A stretch of DNA of 64,000 bases, from the NCBI GenBank assembly GCA_963719505.1, contig CAVRCF010000001.1, positions 224,001 through 288,000 on the forward strand. Direction: 5' to 3'. Below the pieces are notes generated by a model. That model was given only the letters and a program-made list of their open reading frames with translations. It did no database searches and was not told the DNA's origin. Every line of letters starts with the position of its first letter. Position 1 is the stretch's first letter. The stretch comes from Halobacteriovoraceae bacterium (GTDB lineage Bacteria; Bdellovibrionota; Bacteriovoracia; Bacteriovoracales; Bacteriovoracaceae). Below, in pieces: positions 25,164 to 30,296 of the stretch. The position numbers and the translations under genes are program-made.

Positions 25164-25994
25164 TTGAAAAATATTTGGGTTCCCCTATCGGGGCAAGTGG
25201 CGCAACAAAGAAAAGTTGAAACCATTGCCAATAATATTGCAAACGCAAATACTCCTGGTTTCAAAAAAGATCGCTTAACATTTAAAGAACACTTAACGGC
25301 TCTAGATAAGGGTCTTGAAGATATCGACATTCCAAGAGAAGACTGGTCTCCCGATGATTTCTATAAAACTCAAGGAGCCCAGAACTCTCATGTTAAAGTC
25401 GACGGAAGTTACACTGTCCACGAACAAGGAAGACTTGATCCAACAAATAATCCCCTGGACTTTGCTCTTCACGGCAAAGGCTTTTTTGAAGTTTCTACTC
25501 CTCAAGGAATTCGTTATACAAGAAAAGGTAATCTTACTGTTTCAAAAGAAGGTGAGCTCATTACCGACAGCGGTTTCAAGCTTTTGGCAAAGTTAGAAAC
25601 TAAAGCCTCTGACTCTGAGGCAATTGATAAAAGTGATATTGAAAAAAGATTTATAAAACTTCCTGAAGGCGCAAGAATATCTGTGTCGAGAGAGGGAGAG
25701 ATTTTCAACAAAGGCGCCCTGGTTGGACGAATGTCAATTGTTGAATTCAGTGATGTTAATGCCATTAGGAAAGAGGGCAACTCACTTTATATAAATAATG
25801 ACGAAGCAAACTTAAAGCGTGAAAAGGTCGCTACAAGCGTCAATCAAGGCTTTATCGAAGGCTCAAATGTAAATGCCGTTCAGGAGATGTCGGAACTTAT
25901 AAGAGCCCACAGACACTTTGAAAATATTCAAAAAGCAATTAGTACATACGACAGTATCTCTGGAAAAGCTGTTAACGATATCGCTAAATTTTAG
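25164..25994 (+). CDS. flgF: Flagellar basal-body rod protein FlgF
   Basis: IANNIANANTPGFK, NPLDFALHGKGFF, YTRKG, EGSNVNAVQEM; precedes flgG. Confidence 0.92.
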   Translation: MKNIWVPLSGQVAQQRKVETIANNIANANTPGFKKDRLTFKEHLTALDKGLEDIDIPREDWSPDDFYKTQGAQNSHVKVDGSYTVHEQGRLDPTNNPLDFALHGKGFFEVSTPQGIRYTRKGNLTVSKEGELITDSGFKLLAKLETKASDSEAIDKSDIEKRFIKLPEGARISVSREGEIFNKGALVGRMSIVEFSDVNAIRKEGNSLYINNDEANLKREKVATSVNQGFIEGSNVNAVQEMSELIRAHRHFENIQKAISTYDSISGKAVNDIAKF

Positions 25995-26016
25995 TGACAT
26001 CCATAAGGACAAATAA

Positions 26017-26871
26017 ATGAAGCAAATTAAAATTCTACTTTTTTTCTCATTCGTCGTTCTCTTCTTTAGTATTGAAGCTAACGCAATGATAAGGGCCCTC
26101 AATACCGCTGCGACAGGAATGAGTGCACAGGAGTCGAATGTTAATACTATCTCTAACAATATTGCCAACGCCAATACCAACGGCTACAAAACACACCGAA
26201 CAGAATTTGAGGACCTAACTTATCAAACAGTAAGAGAAGCCGGAGCTCGTTCATCTTCAGGATCCATGTACATGGTGGGACAGCAAGTTGGGAGTGGAGC
26301 GAGAGTTTCTGCAACGAGAAGAATTCATAAAATGGGATCTCCCCTTGCAACGAATAATCCCTATGACTTAATGATTATGGGGGACGAAGGCTACTTTGGT
26401 GTCCAAGTTGGAGACGAAATTCAATTCACACGAGATGGCTCTTTCACAGTTGATGCTCAAGGTGTTCTCAAAACCAGAGATGGTCACCCACTGGTACCCT
26501 ACGTAACAATTCCACCCAATACAAAAAGTTTAAATATTGCCAGTGATGGAAAGATTCAAGCCTTTCTAACCTCACAAACAGAACCCATAGAACTTGGACA
26601 AATTCCTGTTTTTGTCTTCGTAAACCCAGCTGGTCTTATGGACCAAGGTGGAAATCTTACCAAGAAGTCGACGGCAAGTGGTGAGCCAATTCAATTAATA
26701 GCTGGGACACAGAATGCTGGAGCAATCCAACAAGGATACCTTGAATCCTCTAACGTCTCTATTATGAATGAGATGACGGGTCTAATTAAGGCACAAAGAG
26801 CTTATGAGATGAATTCAAAAGTTATGGGTGTAGCAGATCAGATGCTTCAAACGGTTAATAATATAAGATGA
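26017..26871 (+). CDS. flgG: Flagellar distal rod protein FlgG, with an N-terminal signal-peptide-like extension (canonical Met at 26086)
   Basis: MIRALNTAATGM...ISNNIANANT, EFEDLTYQ, FTRDGSF, LESSNV, QRAYEMNSK. Confidence 0.95.
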   Translation: MKQIKILLFFSFVVLFFSIEANAMIRALNTAATGMSAQESNVNTISNNIANANTNGYKTHRTEFEDLTYQTVREAGARSSSGSMYMVGQQVGSGARVSATRRIHKMGSPLATNNPYDLMIMGDEGYFGVQVGDEIQFTRDGSFTVDAQGVLKTRDGHPLVPYVTIPPNTKSLNIASDGKIQAFLTSQTEPIELGQIPVFVFVNPAGLMDQGGNLTKKSTASGEPIQLIAGTQNAGAIQQGYLESSNVSIMNEMTGLIKAQRAYEMNSKVMGVADQMLQTVNNIR

Positions 26872-27734
26872 TAAAAAAACTTTTAATCTCTACTTTACTC
26901 CTTCATTGTTTTTCAAGCTTTGCTTGTCAGATAACTTCTTATCCTCAAATTATTAAATTAAACAAAGTCCTCGATGACTCAATCATTAAAAGTTCAGATT
27001 GTGATGATGAGCAAACACAGATGTTTATTCAACTTATTTCAGGGGCTGATGGAGAACTAACATCTAGTCACCTCTCTCAAATCTTTAAATCTGAATTCAA
27101 AAAGGAAATGACTATTTCCCCAGGAAAGATTGAAGTGAAGAGTGTTAAAGATGTCCTTGTAGACTTGGTTCAACTCCCAAGCTCTTTAGTTTTTTCAACG
27201 ACGACTAGTCTCTATGATAAAGGGAGCCTTAATCTTGAAGGGACAAGTACCCTCAATGCAAGTTGTGCCAACTGCGAATCCGCCGGTGAAAAAAACATTA
27301 AAGTCTCCTTGGACAACCAAACGATTTGGTTTTCAACAAAGCTTCTTACCAAAAGAGTTGCATTCATCGCCACAGAAAGTATTTCACCTTTTCAATCAAA
27401 GCTTTCTCAAGATCAATTTTATGAAAAAAAAATATTTGACACAGGGAATACTCACCTATTTCGCGATATGGAAAACATTCGGTTTTATCGCCCTACCCGC
27501 CATCTTGAAAAGGGAAAAGTTTTAAATGTATCTGACTTTGTTCCAATGACAATTGTAAAACCGGGTCAAAAAGTAAAGGTACTCCTTAAAGGAAAAAGCA
27601 TCTCTCTCAATAGCACTGCACTGGCTAGGCAGGGTGGAAAAATTGGACAAATTATTGATGTCTATAATCAAAAAACAAATAAAAAAATATCGGGACTTGT
27701 GATCGATTTCAATACGGTAATGGTTAACTTATGA
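26868..27734 (+). CDS. flgA: P-ring chaperone FlgA
   Basis: Signal peptide; C-terminal IVKPGQKVKV...ALARQGGKIGQIIDVYN; position between flgG and flgH. Confidence 0.88.
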   Translation: MIKKLLISTLLLHCFSSFACQITSYPQIIKLNKVLDDSIIKSSDCDDEQTQMFIQLISGADGELTSSHLSQIFKSEFKKEMTISPGKIEVKSVKDVLVDLVQLPSSLVFSTTTSLYDKGSLNLEGTSTLNASCANCESAGEKNIKVSLDNQTIWFSTKLLTKRVAFIATESISPFQSKLSQDQFYEKKIFDTGNTHLFRDMENIRFYRPTRHLEKGKVLNVSDFVPMTIVKPGQKVKVLLKGKSISLNSTALARQGGKIGQIIDVYNQKTNKKISGLVIDFNTVMVNL

Positions 27735-28480
27735 AAATACTTATTTTAGCGACACTTTTTCTTTTTACCTCATGTGCCTCTTACGTCAATAGGATGCATA
27801 GACAAATAGATCACGAGGAAAGAGTGGCAGCTGGATATCCCGCAAGACCTGCTCAAGTCCCTTATAATCGCTATCAAGCCGCCAATGCCAGAGGCATAAA
27901 TAATCCTGTTACTCTTGGTGGTGGGGCAAGGCAAAGCACGAGAAACACGCCAAACCTTCCTCCACAAAACCAAAGAGACTTTGATGGTTACGGAAAAAGA
28001 AGAGTGACTGCTAACGACCTTAAGGATAACGAACAAAGTGGAAGTCTATGGACTGGAAAGCATTCTGAGAGCTTTCTCTTTGTCACCAACAACATAAAAA
28101 GAGCTGGAGATATCGTTATTGTCGAGGTTTTGAATCCACTTAAAGAGACAATTCAAGAGGAATTAGAAAGAACGTTCCCGGTCGCCCCGCAAAAAACGAA
28201 AAAAGGTGAAAAAGCTGAAGAGAAAAAAGAAGCCCCTGCGGAAGAAGTTGCCAAGGGCGAAACTGACGAGAAAAAAGTCTATGATAAGATATCTACTCAA
28301 GTAATTGAGGAGATCAACAAAGATTACCTCCTAGTCAGAGGAAGAAAAGAGATTATGTATAAAACGAGAAGAAGATTTATAGAATTTCAAGCTCTCGTTT
28401 CTAGAAAAGATATTTCAAACGATGACGCCGTACAATCGTCAAAAGTTCTTGAACCTAAAATTTCAGTATTGAGGTACTAA
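27731..28480 (+). CDS. flgH: Flagellar L-ring lipoprotein FlgH
   Basis: Lipobox FTSC, GSLW, GDIVIVEV, LLVRGRKEI; position. Confidence 0.88.
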   Translation: MKILILATLFLFTSCASYVNRMHRQIDHEERVAAGYPARPAQVPYNRYQAANARGINNPVTLGGGARQSTRNTPNLPPQNQRDFDGYGKRRVTANDLKDNEQSGSLWTGKHSESFLFVTNNIKRAGDIVIVEVLNPLKETIQEELERTFPVAPQKTKKGEKAEEKKEAPAEEVAKGETDEKKVYDKISTQVIEEINKDYLLVRGRKEIMYKTRRRFIEFQALVSRKDISNDDAVQSSKVLEPKISVLRY

Positions 28481-28482
28481 AA

Positions 28483-29487
28483 ATGAAAAACATCCTTACC
28501 CTAGCCGTTCTTATTGTTTCTCTTAATGCTCTTGCGGCAAATAGGCTCAAAGATATCGTTTCGATAAAAGGTGTTCGAGATAACCCTCTTATTGGATACG
28601 GTCTAGTTATAGGACTTAACGGTACTGGTGATGGCGGTGGTGAAGTAACAAACTCATCCCTTCGAAAGATGTTTCAAACTCTTGGGCTTGATGCTCCAAC
28701 TGAGGTCAGTTCAAAAAATGTTGCGGCGGTAATCGTCACAGCAAAACTTCCTCCCTTTGGAAGAATAGGTCAAAAGCTTGATGTTACAGTCTCTTCGATT
28801 GGGGATTCAAGCTCCCTTGCTGGCGGAACTCTTCTTGTGACTCCCCTAAAAGGCGGAGACGGCAAGGTTTATGCCGTTGCCAATGGAGCTCTTTCCATCG
28901 GTGGACTAACTCAAGGTGCAAAGTTTGCAACAACAGGTGCGATCCCAAGTGGAGCGACTATAGAGCAGGAAATAGCTCTGTCATTTGATAAGAAAAAGTC
29001 GATTAGACTATCACTCAATAGACCTGACTTCACGACAGCGGCAAGAGTCGTTAAAACGATTAATGAAAACTTAGGTGGTCTTTTTGCTAGTGCATCAGAC
29101 TCTGCGACGATAGACCTTATTATTCCAACAAACTACGAAAGAGAAATCGTTAATCTTATAGCAATCATTGAAAACTATAGAGTGAACCAAGATCAAAAAG
29201 CTAAGATTGTCATCAACGAGAAGACCGGAACTATTGTTGCCGGAGGAGATGTCACTCTAAATCGCGTGGCCATAAGTCATGGAGACCTGACTATTGAGGT
29301 CGGAGATGCCAATGATAAAGGTAAAGATGGGAAAAAAGGTTCACTTTTCATGATAGAGCAAAAAACCACACTAAAAGAATTGGTCAATGCTTTGAATGCT
29401 ATTGGGACAAATCCGGACGATTTAATCTCTATTTTTCAAACACTTAAGACGAATGGGGCATTAATTGCCGATATCGAATTCATCTAA
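28483..29487 (+). CDS. flgI: Flagellar P-ring protein FlgI
   Basis: RLKDI..IKGVRDNPLIGYGLVIGLNGTGD, KNVAAVIVTA, PDFTTA, INEKTGTIV. Confidence 0.97.
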   Translation: MKNILTLAVLIVSLNALAANRLKDIVSIKGVRDNPLIGYGLVIGLNGTGDGGGEVTNSSLRKMFQTLGLDAPTEVSSKNVAAVIVTAKLPPFGRIGQKLDVTVSSIGDSSSLAGGTLLVTPLKGGDGKVYAVANGALSIGGLTQGAKFATTGAIPSGATIEQEIALSFDKKKSIRLSLNRPDFTTAARVVKTINENLGGLFASASDSATIDLIIPTNYEREIVNLIAIIENYRVNQDQKAKIVINEKTGTIVAGGDVTLNRVAISHGDLTIEVGDANDKGKDGKKGSLFMIEQKTTLKELVNALNAIGTNPDDLISIFQTLKTNGALIADIEFI

Positions 29488-29602: not shown

Positions 29603-29971
29603 ATGAACCAAATAAACAAACTTCCAAATTTACCAATTAAGCAAGAGACAGGTCAGACTGCCAAATACAAAAACGTCCCTAAACCCTACTTAGATGTAGC
29701 GAAAGGAATGGAAAAGCAGTTTATTAGTTATATGATCAGTCAGATGAATAATTCAGTTAAGTCTGAAAATGAAGACAGTAGTGCCCAGAAGTACTACAAG
29801 GGCTTAATGGATAATGAAAGAGCCGAAATTATGGCCAATACAAAAAATGGAATCGGCATGAAGGATTTAGTACTAGACCAAATCCTACCAAGCCACCTAA
29901 AGCAGCCTGCAAATGTTCAAGCTGCTGTTAAAAGATATCAGCATGAGGCTGACTCCAAAGGGGAGATCTAA
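29603..29971 (+). CDS. flgJ: FlgJ, rod-binding domain only
   Basis: VAKGMEKQFISYMISQMNNSV...YKGLMDNERAEIMA...GIGMKDLVLDQ; follows flgI. Confidence 0.8.
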   Translation: MNQINKLPNLPIKQETGQTAKYKNVPKPYLDVAKGMEKQFISYMISQMNNSVKSENEDSSAQKYYKGLMDNERAEIMANTKNGIGMKDLVLDQILPSHLKQPANVQAAVKRYQHEADSKGEI

Positions 29972-29972
29972 A

Positions 29973-30296
29973 ATGAGTACAATTGACACTAGAGCAAACT
30001 TTTTTCCACGTTCTAAAACAGCACAAGCTGAGAGGGCTCAGGCCAAGTCAGCAGCTGCGATGAAGAGAAATCCTTTTGAAAAGACTGCTGAAATTAATTC
30101 AAGTACTGCAAAGGATGCAAAGGTCTCTATCCCTGAGAAGATAAGAGATTTTTCAAGGATTAAGAAGGCGGTCGATATGGCTCCAGAAATCGATAATTCA
30201 GATAAAATTGCGAGCCTAAAAGCACAAATCCAAGCGGGAACTTACCAGCCAGATTACGATGCTCTCGCAGATAAAATTTTAACAACTGAATACTAA
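29973..30296 (+). CDS. flgM: Anti-sigma28 factor FlgM
   Basis: DKIASLKAQIQAGTYQPDYDALADKIL; GGGGAG RBS before ATG 29973. Confidence 0.9.
   Translation: MSTIDTRANFFPRSKTAQAERAQAKSAAAMKRNPFEKTAEINSSTAKDAKVSIPEKIRDFSRIKKAVDMAPEIDNSDKIASLKAQIQAGTYQPDYDALADKILTTEY

Follow-up and report, generated by a model that had tools for sequence, protein, structure and literature searches.

In the textbook account of flagellar assembly, the proteins of rod, hook and filament pass through the type III channel and are added from inside at the distal tip; the ring proteins and their chaperone use the Sec pathway. To our knowledge, no axial protein (rod, hook or filament) uses Sec. The stretch of DNA analysed here, referred to as the window, comprises 64,000 nucleotides (nt) of a predatory Halobacteriovoraceae bacterium of the phylum Bdellovibrionota (assembly GCA_963719505.1, contig CAVRCF010000001.1, positions 224,001 to 288,000 of the forward strand) and encodes a distal-rod protein, FlgG, with a predicted Sec-type leader in front of the canonical sequence. 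The host genome consists of 5 contigs and has a completeness of 83.5%. Positions within the window are counted from its first nucleotide.

Docking of rod and hook subunits depends on a gate-recognition motif (GRM) that was reportedly defined by Evans et al. in 2013. The motif is given as FXXXPhi, which docks rod and hook subunits on FlhBc and is essential for their export (PMC10965912), and its position in FlgG is located beyond residue 35 (PMC8983047).

The leader of FlgG in the window and its relatives

A precursor of FlgG with 284 amino acids (aa) is encoded by the open reading frame (ORF) at 26017..26871 (+). An in-frame TAA (26014-26016) lies directly before ATG 26017 (+), and from this ATG 23 stop-free codons (MKQIKILLFFSFVVLFFSIEANA) lead into ATG 26086 (MIRALNTAATGM...). 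The leader is composed of an n-region, MKQIK, with two positive charges (K2 and K5), an h-region of 13 uncharged residues (ILLFFSFVVLFFS) and a c-region, IEANA. The best 10-residue window of the h-region reached a mean hydropathy of 3.19, which is higher than in FlgA, FlgH and FlgI of the same operon. A signal peptidase I site is predicted after A23 (26083-26085), with A-N-A at -3 to -1 and M (no Pro) at +1. By direct reading, neither a lipobox Cys at +1 nor a twin arginine was present in the 23-residue leader. No Shine-Dalgarno (SD) match was detected before 26086; AGGA is located 7 nt before 26017. Among the other flagellar proteins of the window genome that were inspected, FlgB, FlgC, FlgE, FlgF and FlgK, none carried a leader. 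The initial annotation of this DNA had described an AAGGA ribosome-binding site with ATG 26017 fused in frame to the canonical start, the lack of a clear ribosome-binding site at 26086, a leader made of basic n-region, hydrophobic h-region and AxA site, and the absence of an extension on the neighbouring FlgF. All of this was found in the sequence as described.

Residues 24-281 of the precursor aligned with residues 1-258 of the solved Salmonella FlgG (E 8e-61), and matches to FlgE and FlgF were far weaker (1e-23 and below). Pfam domains above the curated cut-offs were PF00460 (Flg_bb_rod, residues 28-58), PF22692 (124-182) and PF06429 (238-283). By all features analysed, the protein is a FlgG. 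A search was made against 1.84 billion representative proteins, and among the best 150 matches nearly all started, with their own residue 1-5, opposite query residues 23-30. Exceptions among these 150 were two N-terminally truncated proteins of 241 and 251 aa, with starts opposite residues 45 and 36, respectively, as well as a small number of multi-stretch proteins that matched internal FlgG segments only. The alignments thus reveal a complete FlgG to which 23 residues have been added. As regards a free, small-hydrophobic N-terminal end that would act as type III export signal, the mature sequence MIRALNTAATGM is conserved, yet it is buried behind the leader in the precursor. As a separate observation, very long proteins (P0001, P0003, P0126, P0100 and P0130 with 3219, 2471, 1246, 497 and 469 aa, respectively) each gave between 3 and 12 separate matches to the middle of FlgG (approximately residues 100-260), which are apparently tandem repeats of the FlgE/F/G D1 type.

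FlgG loci for comparison were taken from 40 relatives of the window genome (30 loci), from public genome records mostly titled Bacteriovoracaceae, Halobacteriovoraceae, Bacteriovorax or Peredibacter (80 loci), and from a 401-genome sample of the phylum, from which 20 regions were picked. Three of the 130 loci were dropped since the N-terminus or the upstream DNA was insufficient, and the remaining 127 contained 115 distinct FlgG cores. Of the 115 Bdellovibrionota cores, 45 were preceded by a start in frame with a hydrophobic leader behind it, and 70 were not. The 45 leaders diverged in sequence and were alike in build. They were 15-31 aa long (median 22) and ended exactly at canonical residue 1. 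The n-region was net positive in 43 of them, and the hydropathy of the best 10-residue window averaged 2.83. Residue -1 was Ala in 30, Ser in 7, Gly in 6 and Pro in 2 cases (A/S/G in 43/45), as compared to 7.8% Ala in the cores. At residue -3, Ser (19) and Ala (18) prevailed, followed by Gly and Leu (2 each) and by Ile, Thr, Val and Asn (one each), so that a small or aliphatic residue was found in 44/45.

A crude, rule-based signal-peptide test was passed by 44 of the 45 precursors, with the site exactly at the junction in 40, and neither by any of the 70 leaderless FlgGs nor by any of the 45 leader-bearing cores when these were tested alone. When applied to the window, the test was passed by FlgA, FlgH and FlgI and failed by FlgF, and it placed the site of FlgG exactly at the junction. 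A second, independent sample was formed by the best 120 FlgG-like proteins of a 5.8-billion collection that had been gene-called by others. It contained 57 extended, 59 canonical and 4 unparsed proteins; 52 of the extended proteins passed the test (50 at the junction), as did 0/59 of the canonical ones. The exact 284-aa form of the window FlgG is contained in this collection, and the 261-aa form is absent there. The long form of FlgG is already in public annotation, without comment. Two extended proteins differed at the canonical N-terminus: P0269 has lost these residues (it reads ...LAAYASSGALNTAATGM, with no M-x-R), and in P0184 Ala replaces the canonical Met (…PLESE/AIRALNTA).

Start signals differed between both groups of genes. 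An SD match of at least 4 nt was found at the canonical start of 57/70 leaderless genes versus 3/45 leader-bearing genes. Among the first 29 loci, 16 genes had a leader; their upstream starts were located 6-22 nt past the flgF stop, or in a 20-nt overlap, and were preceded by AGGA, AGGAG or GAGGT. The canonical starts of the 13 leaderless genes were located 9-57 nt past the flgF stop and had an SD of their own. With the leader counted as coding, the same tight flgF-flgG junction is therefore obtained in all genomes. In L024 (GTT ATA), L129 (CTC TCA) and L130 (ACA TTA), neither the canonical nor the next codon is a start codon, and full-length FlgG must therefore initiate upstream in these loci. 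Four more leader-bearing orthologues have ATT or TTA at the canonical site, followed by ATG.

Selection on the leader was assessed by the proportions of nonsynonymous (pN) and synonymous (pS) differences. The leaders of the window and of L002, which is its closest relative, had 13 synonymous differences at 13.5 sites and 4 nonsynonymous differences at 52.5 sites (pN/pS 0.08). Six further pairs of equal length gave 0.10-0.46, and the pair L003/L034 gave 0.57. The cores of the equal-length pairs, with omission of the window/L002 pair in which the two cores differ in length, gave pN values of 0.02-0.06 at pS values of 0.65-0.79. Leader pairs of unequal length (L091/L110, L104/L107 and L010/L095) gave values of approximately 1 from codon misalignment and were excluded. 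Because synonymous sites are near saturation, a non-coding spacer would be scrambled. Judged by these ratios, the leader is constrained more loosely than mature FlgG, as signal peptides are, and it is almost certainly translated and under selection.

In a rival view, the extension would be a frame left open by chance within T-rich intergenic DNA, and 26086 would be the true start. By an arithmetic estimate, 23 stop-free codons are expected by chance in about one fifth (~0.2) of such stretches at 36.8% GC. Openness by itself is thus unremarkable, and the excess over chance comes from the conservation of the leader in relatives. One sigma-70-like match overlaps positions 26006-26033; a promoter and terminator scan around the flgF-flgG junction gave nothing above chance (7 promoter matches versus 5.5 expected). 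The initial annotation had regarded the extension as a chance translation in the case of stops or frameshifts in orthologues, or of initiation at 26086. Neither stops nor frameshifts were found in the extension of the orthologues, which was instead open, preceded by an SD and signal-like in 45/115. Initiation at 26086 alone is contradicted by the SD, which is located upstream only, and by the three orthologues that lack a canonical start codon. Long upstream frames also occur in other families (L111-L116); these are unlike signal peptides and have an SD at the canonical start. Together with pN/pS values far below 1 at saturated synonymous sites, these results render a chance frame extremely improbable.

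The distribution of the leader was followed in an even sample of the window's family, in which 71/98 FlgG frames were open over at least 277 aa (hand count); open-frame length serves here as a proxy for the leader, and one of the 71 (G008) is known to be leaderless. In the other families of the phylum, the FlgG frames among the matches listed had 260-275 aa. The six longest of these (G214, G341, G365, G111, G158 and G298) had no leader, and an SD was present at the canonical start. Outside the family, among the matches listed, a leader was found only in G033 (L028), which is placed on a long branch. Only one of 133 full-length FlgG representatives from all bacteria, a member of the window's family, is extended by at least 8 residues ahead of the canonical start. 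The leader trait needed 3 changes on a 29-row tree, as compared to a mean of 9.9 for shuffled labels (0/500 as low), and on a 100-row quick tree it needed 5 changes. Among the latter is a leaderless clade, L037-L048, inside the leader-bearing clade of the window. Its FlgGs are 74-76% identical to the window core, have FEDLL or FEDLM intact and an SD at the canonical start, and represent an apparent secondary loss of the leader. Within the family, the leader is an old trait and occurs widely.

In each of 347 genomes, a single FlgG match was obtained at E<=1e-40, and therefore no leaderless copy compensates for the extended one. No FlgG was detected at this threshold with the window query in G132, G199 and G332 (94-99% complete), which belong to one genus (g43) of the window's family; this genus may be without flagella.

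The type III docking motif of FlgG

In the alignment with Salmonella FlgG, F41-E-D-L-L45 corresponds to F-E-D-L-T of the window protein, in which the hydrophobic fifth residue is changed to Thr. From this alignment, we infer that the GRM is placed at FlgG 41-45; the window FlgG deviates from the strict motif. The GRM was broken in 28/45 leader-bearing versus 0/70 leaderless FlgGs. All of the 70 leaderless proteins, which include members of five other families, have Phe41 and a hydrophobic residue 45. Of the leader-bearing rows in the 100-row subset, 18/37 had Ile, Ser, Thr or Met in place of Phe41, and 12/37 had Thr, Ser, Gly, Asn or Ala at residue 45; Lys at residue 45 was also seen in the gene-called protein sample. 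On the rooted tree, 7/7 residue changes at position 41 and 5/5 losses of hydrophobicity at position 45 were located on leader-state branches. These branches make up 43.8% of the tree length. If changes were spread according to length, 12/12 would have a probability of ~5e-5, a rough value in view of the related sequences, the quick tree and the use of parsimony to place the motif events.

FlgF was used as a control. According to the alignment, FlgF has retained Phe and a hydrophobic fifth residue in all loci with a leader (37/37) and in all loci without one (61/61); the two loci without flgF are left out of these counts. An intact flhB gene of 357-372 aa was present in 19/19 of the relatives that gave a match, leader-bearing genomes included. 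Since the motif of FlgF is kept and flhB is intact, the docking mechanism is maintained, and only leader-bearing FlgG has been released from it. A decay of the motif that is confined to leader-bearing FlgGs is expected from a switch of the export route. At the level of sequence, the comparison shows a conserved build of the leader, its end at the canonical N-terminus and its coupling to a relaxed docking motif.

Proposed export route and its alternatives

According to the explanation that we propose, the 284-aa precursor would be started at ATG 26017 and translocated by Sec. A cut by signal peptidase I after Ala-Asn-Ala would regenerate the canonical N-terminus (MIRAL...), and a pool of mature FlgG in the periplasm would polymerise on the proximal rod made of FlgF, bypassing the flagellar type III channel. 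With the leader present, the FlhB-docking motif would no longer be maintained in FlgG. A Peptidase_S26 (signal peptidase I) gene is present in the window genome. That axial subunits are added to a template from solution is physically plausible in view of classical experiments in which flagellin and hook protein polymerised in vitro.

Several points weigh against this route. The signal-peptide test is permissive and was also passed by 25% of the genome's SD-started ORFs. A basic residue is present at +3 of the mature part in 45/45 leader-bearing FlgGs, and Sec translocation is hampered by basic residues at the beginning of the mature region. However, over the first 18 residues the net charge was 0 or negative in 43/45. 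We know of no mechanism for the addition of rod subunits from outside. An independent-pairs test of leader versus motif loss had 3-5 usable pairs, too few for significance. The window FlgG itself keeps the Phe of the motif (FEDLT). Beyond the phylum, not every FlgG has the motif: of the 133 representatives from all bacteria, 122 have F41 and 120 are hydrophobic at residue 45. Of 18 rows flagged, 17 depart from the motif and carry no N-terminal extension, and motif loss alone is therefore no proof of type III independence. The rod-binding FlgJ-type gene is still present. In addition, flhB of the window genome has an interruption within the linker that joins its membrane and cytoplasmic domains (G000:C3, ~298531-298575, outside the window). 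A 237-aa ORF ends there at TGA, a second ORF of 107 aa starts at MSQKRMIADVPKADVIITNPTH, and the homologous frame between both contains one frameshift and an in-frame TAG. The interruption could be a real split, a pseudogene or an assembly error; accordingly, this genome may have an impaired flagellar system, or its sequence assembly may be prone to error.

Two more points of this kind, the canonical ATG kept in 37/45 leader-bearing genes, which leaves room for internal initiation, and the GRM intact in 17/45 leader-bearing FlgGs, are also those that favour the main rival explanation, a dual routing of FlgG. A long Sec form would exist besides an internally initiated short form that is exported by type III and builds the rod, and the periplasmic form would have another role or be a supplement. 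Four of the other eight genes have ATG as the next codon, and reversion is possible, as judged by the nested leaderless clade L037-L048 with its intact motif. As the general case, this explanation is argued against by the strong SD before the canonical ATG, which was present in 3/45 only, by the lack of an internal start codon in L024, L129 and L130, and by the motif broken in 28/45 (Ser, Thr and Lys substitutions included), which would cripple the short form. Dual routing is therefore regarded as unlikely.

Alternatively, the extension might serve type III export, as an enlarged hydrophobic export signal or by membrane targeting to the export gate. The termini of axial proteins line a narrow central channel, and an uncleaved hydrophobic tail of 15-31 residues per subunit would not fit into it. 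A function in type III export would not account for the A/S/G at -1 in 43/45 leaders, nor for the small residue at -3, exactly at the junction, and likewise not for the basic n-region and the decay of the GRM. N-terminal additions of at least 8 residues were found in 1/133 representatives only, in the window's family. This alternative is considered improbable.

The hydrophobic N-terminus is also compatible with membrane insertion, and an uncleaved signal anchor would tether FlgG to the inner membrane, e.g. as a regulatory or storage form. The h-regions are short, however (the median of 22 applies to the whole leader), and are followed by a conserved cleavage motif. Moreover, the sole FlgG of each genome, with a core under strong purifying selection, must form the rod. 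Tethering by a signal anchor thus appears very improbable.

Considering its anatomy, which agrees with that of signal peptidase I signal peptides in each sequence-level feature, the leader is likely to act as a cleaved Sec signal. The sequence of precursor, Sec translocation, cleavage and periplasmic assembly appears moderately probable as a whole, and marginally lower confidence is placed in the entry of FlgG into the rod from the periplasm with bypass of type III export. Sec delivery, a cleavage after ANA that restores the native N-terminus, and periplasmic assembly had been put forward in the initial annotation, and they are supported here as putative steps. We lean slightly towards the view that an axial part is built from outside in most species of the family, by a switch that would be reversible while the motif is intact and fixed after its decay.

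Neighbouring genes and comparison with known systems

The genes in the window are arranged in the order flgF, flgG, flgA, flgH, flgI, a rod-binding FlgJ-type gene and flgM (Table 1). The flgA gene was found downstream in 29/37 leader-bearing versus 55/63 leaderless loci, i.e., without a difference, and the misses were divergent or truncated loci. In most relatives the first codon of flgF is Leu (tblastn alignments), which points to a conserved TTG start. The rod-binding protein and FlgM overlap by 59 nt (29913-29971) in their listed ORFs. The Pfam match of FlgM starts at residue 70, and the true flgM start may be further downstream.

Table 1. Features of the flgG region, with positions in the window
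Feature	Position	Strand	Remarks
flgF (proximal rod)	25164..25994	+	TTG start behind AGGAGG; without leader; motif FKEHL kept
Shine-Dalgarno AAGGA	26005..26009	+	7 nt before ATG 26017
Predicted Sec-type signal peptide of FlgG, 23 codons	26017..26085	+	Anatomy and conservation in relatives
Mature FlgG (predicted), 261 aa plus stop	26086..26871	+	M24 of the precursor = canonical FlgG residue 1
Position of the GRM, reads FEDLT	26206..26220	+	Alignment to Salmonella FlgG 41-45
flgA (P-ring chaperone, own signal peptide)	26868..27734	+	4-nt overlap with flgG stop
flgH (L-ring lipoprotein)	27731..28480	+	
flgI (P-ring, Sec signal peptide)	28483..29487	+	
Rod-binding protein (FlgJ N-terminal type)	29603..29971	+	
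flgM (anti-sigma-28)	29913..30296	+	Listed ORF start overlaps the preceding gene

Searches of the literature on signal peptides of FlgG or the distal rod, on Sec and on Halobacteriovorax flagella gave no description of a Sec leader on FlgG in these bacteria. A genome-wide screen lists FlgG as flagged with a Sec-type signal and with a reporter result, in a table row without discussion (PMC5167687). The same list contains CTP synthetase and ribosomal protein L35, and false positives are therefore likely (PMC5167687). The likeness of this FlgG to that of the window consists in the Sec-type flag. For orthologous groups of the Enterobacterales, repeated gains and losses of signal peptides are described in another report (PMC5952966). 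FlgG is similar in that its orthologues differ and that its leader needs 5 changes on the 100-row tree. The Enterobacterales cases differ in that proteins in general are treated and no substrate of a dedicated secretion system changes its route (PMC5952966).

If the proposed route is true, FlgG of this family would be the first natural exception to the type III rule for axial components. Rod subunits could then join from the periplasm, which bears on the role of the rod cap and on the control of assembly order, and also on how a dedicated secretion substrate changes its route in evolution. The family represents a natural experiment, with leader-bearing, leaderless and apparently reverted lineages side by side. 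For annotation, the long flgG start is to be taken as the real start in these genomes.

The window FlgG resembles Salmonella FlgG (5wrh, 7bin, 7cgo, 7e80 and others) in being colinear over the full length, with the same three Pfam domains, and it shares with canonical FlgG the flgF-flgG-flgA-flgH-flgI neighbourhood and the single copy. Canonical FlgG starts at the residue that corresponds to M24 of the window protein, has F41EDLL45 and leaves the cell unprocessed through the flagellar type III system, whereas the window FlgG has a predicted Sec-type leader of 23 residues and FEDLT. In its leader it resembles FlgI, FlgH and FlgA, which are encoded in the same operon, have signal peptides of the same build and act in the periplasm around the distal rod; these are ring or chaperone proteins, however, and not axial. 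The comparison supports the view that a known protein and a known signal occur here in a combination that would break the rule for axial proteins.

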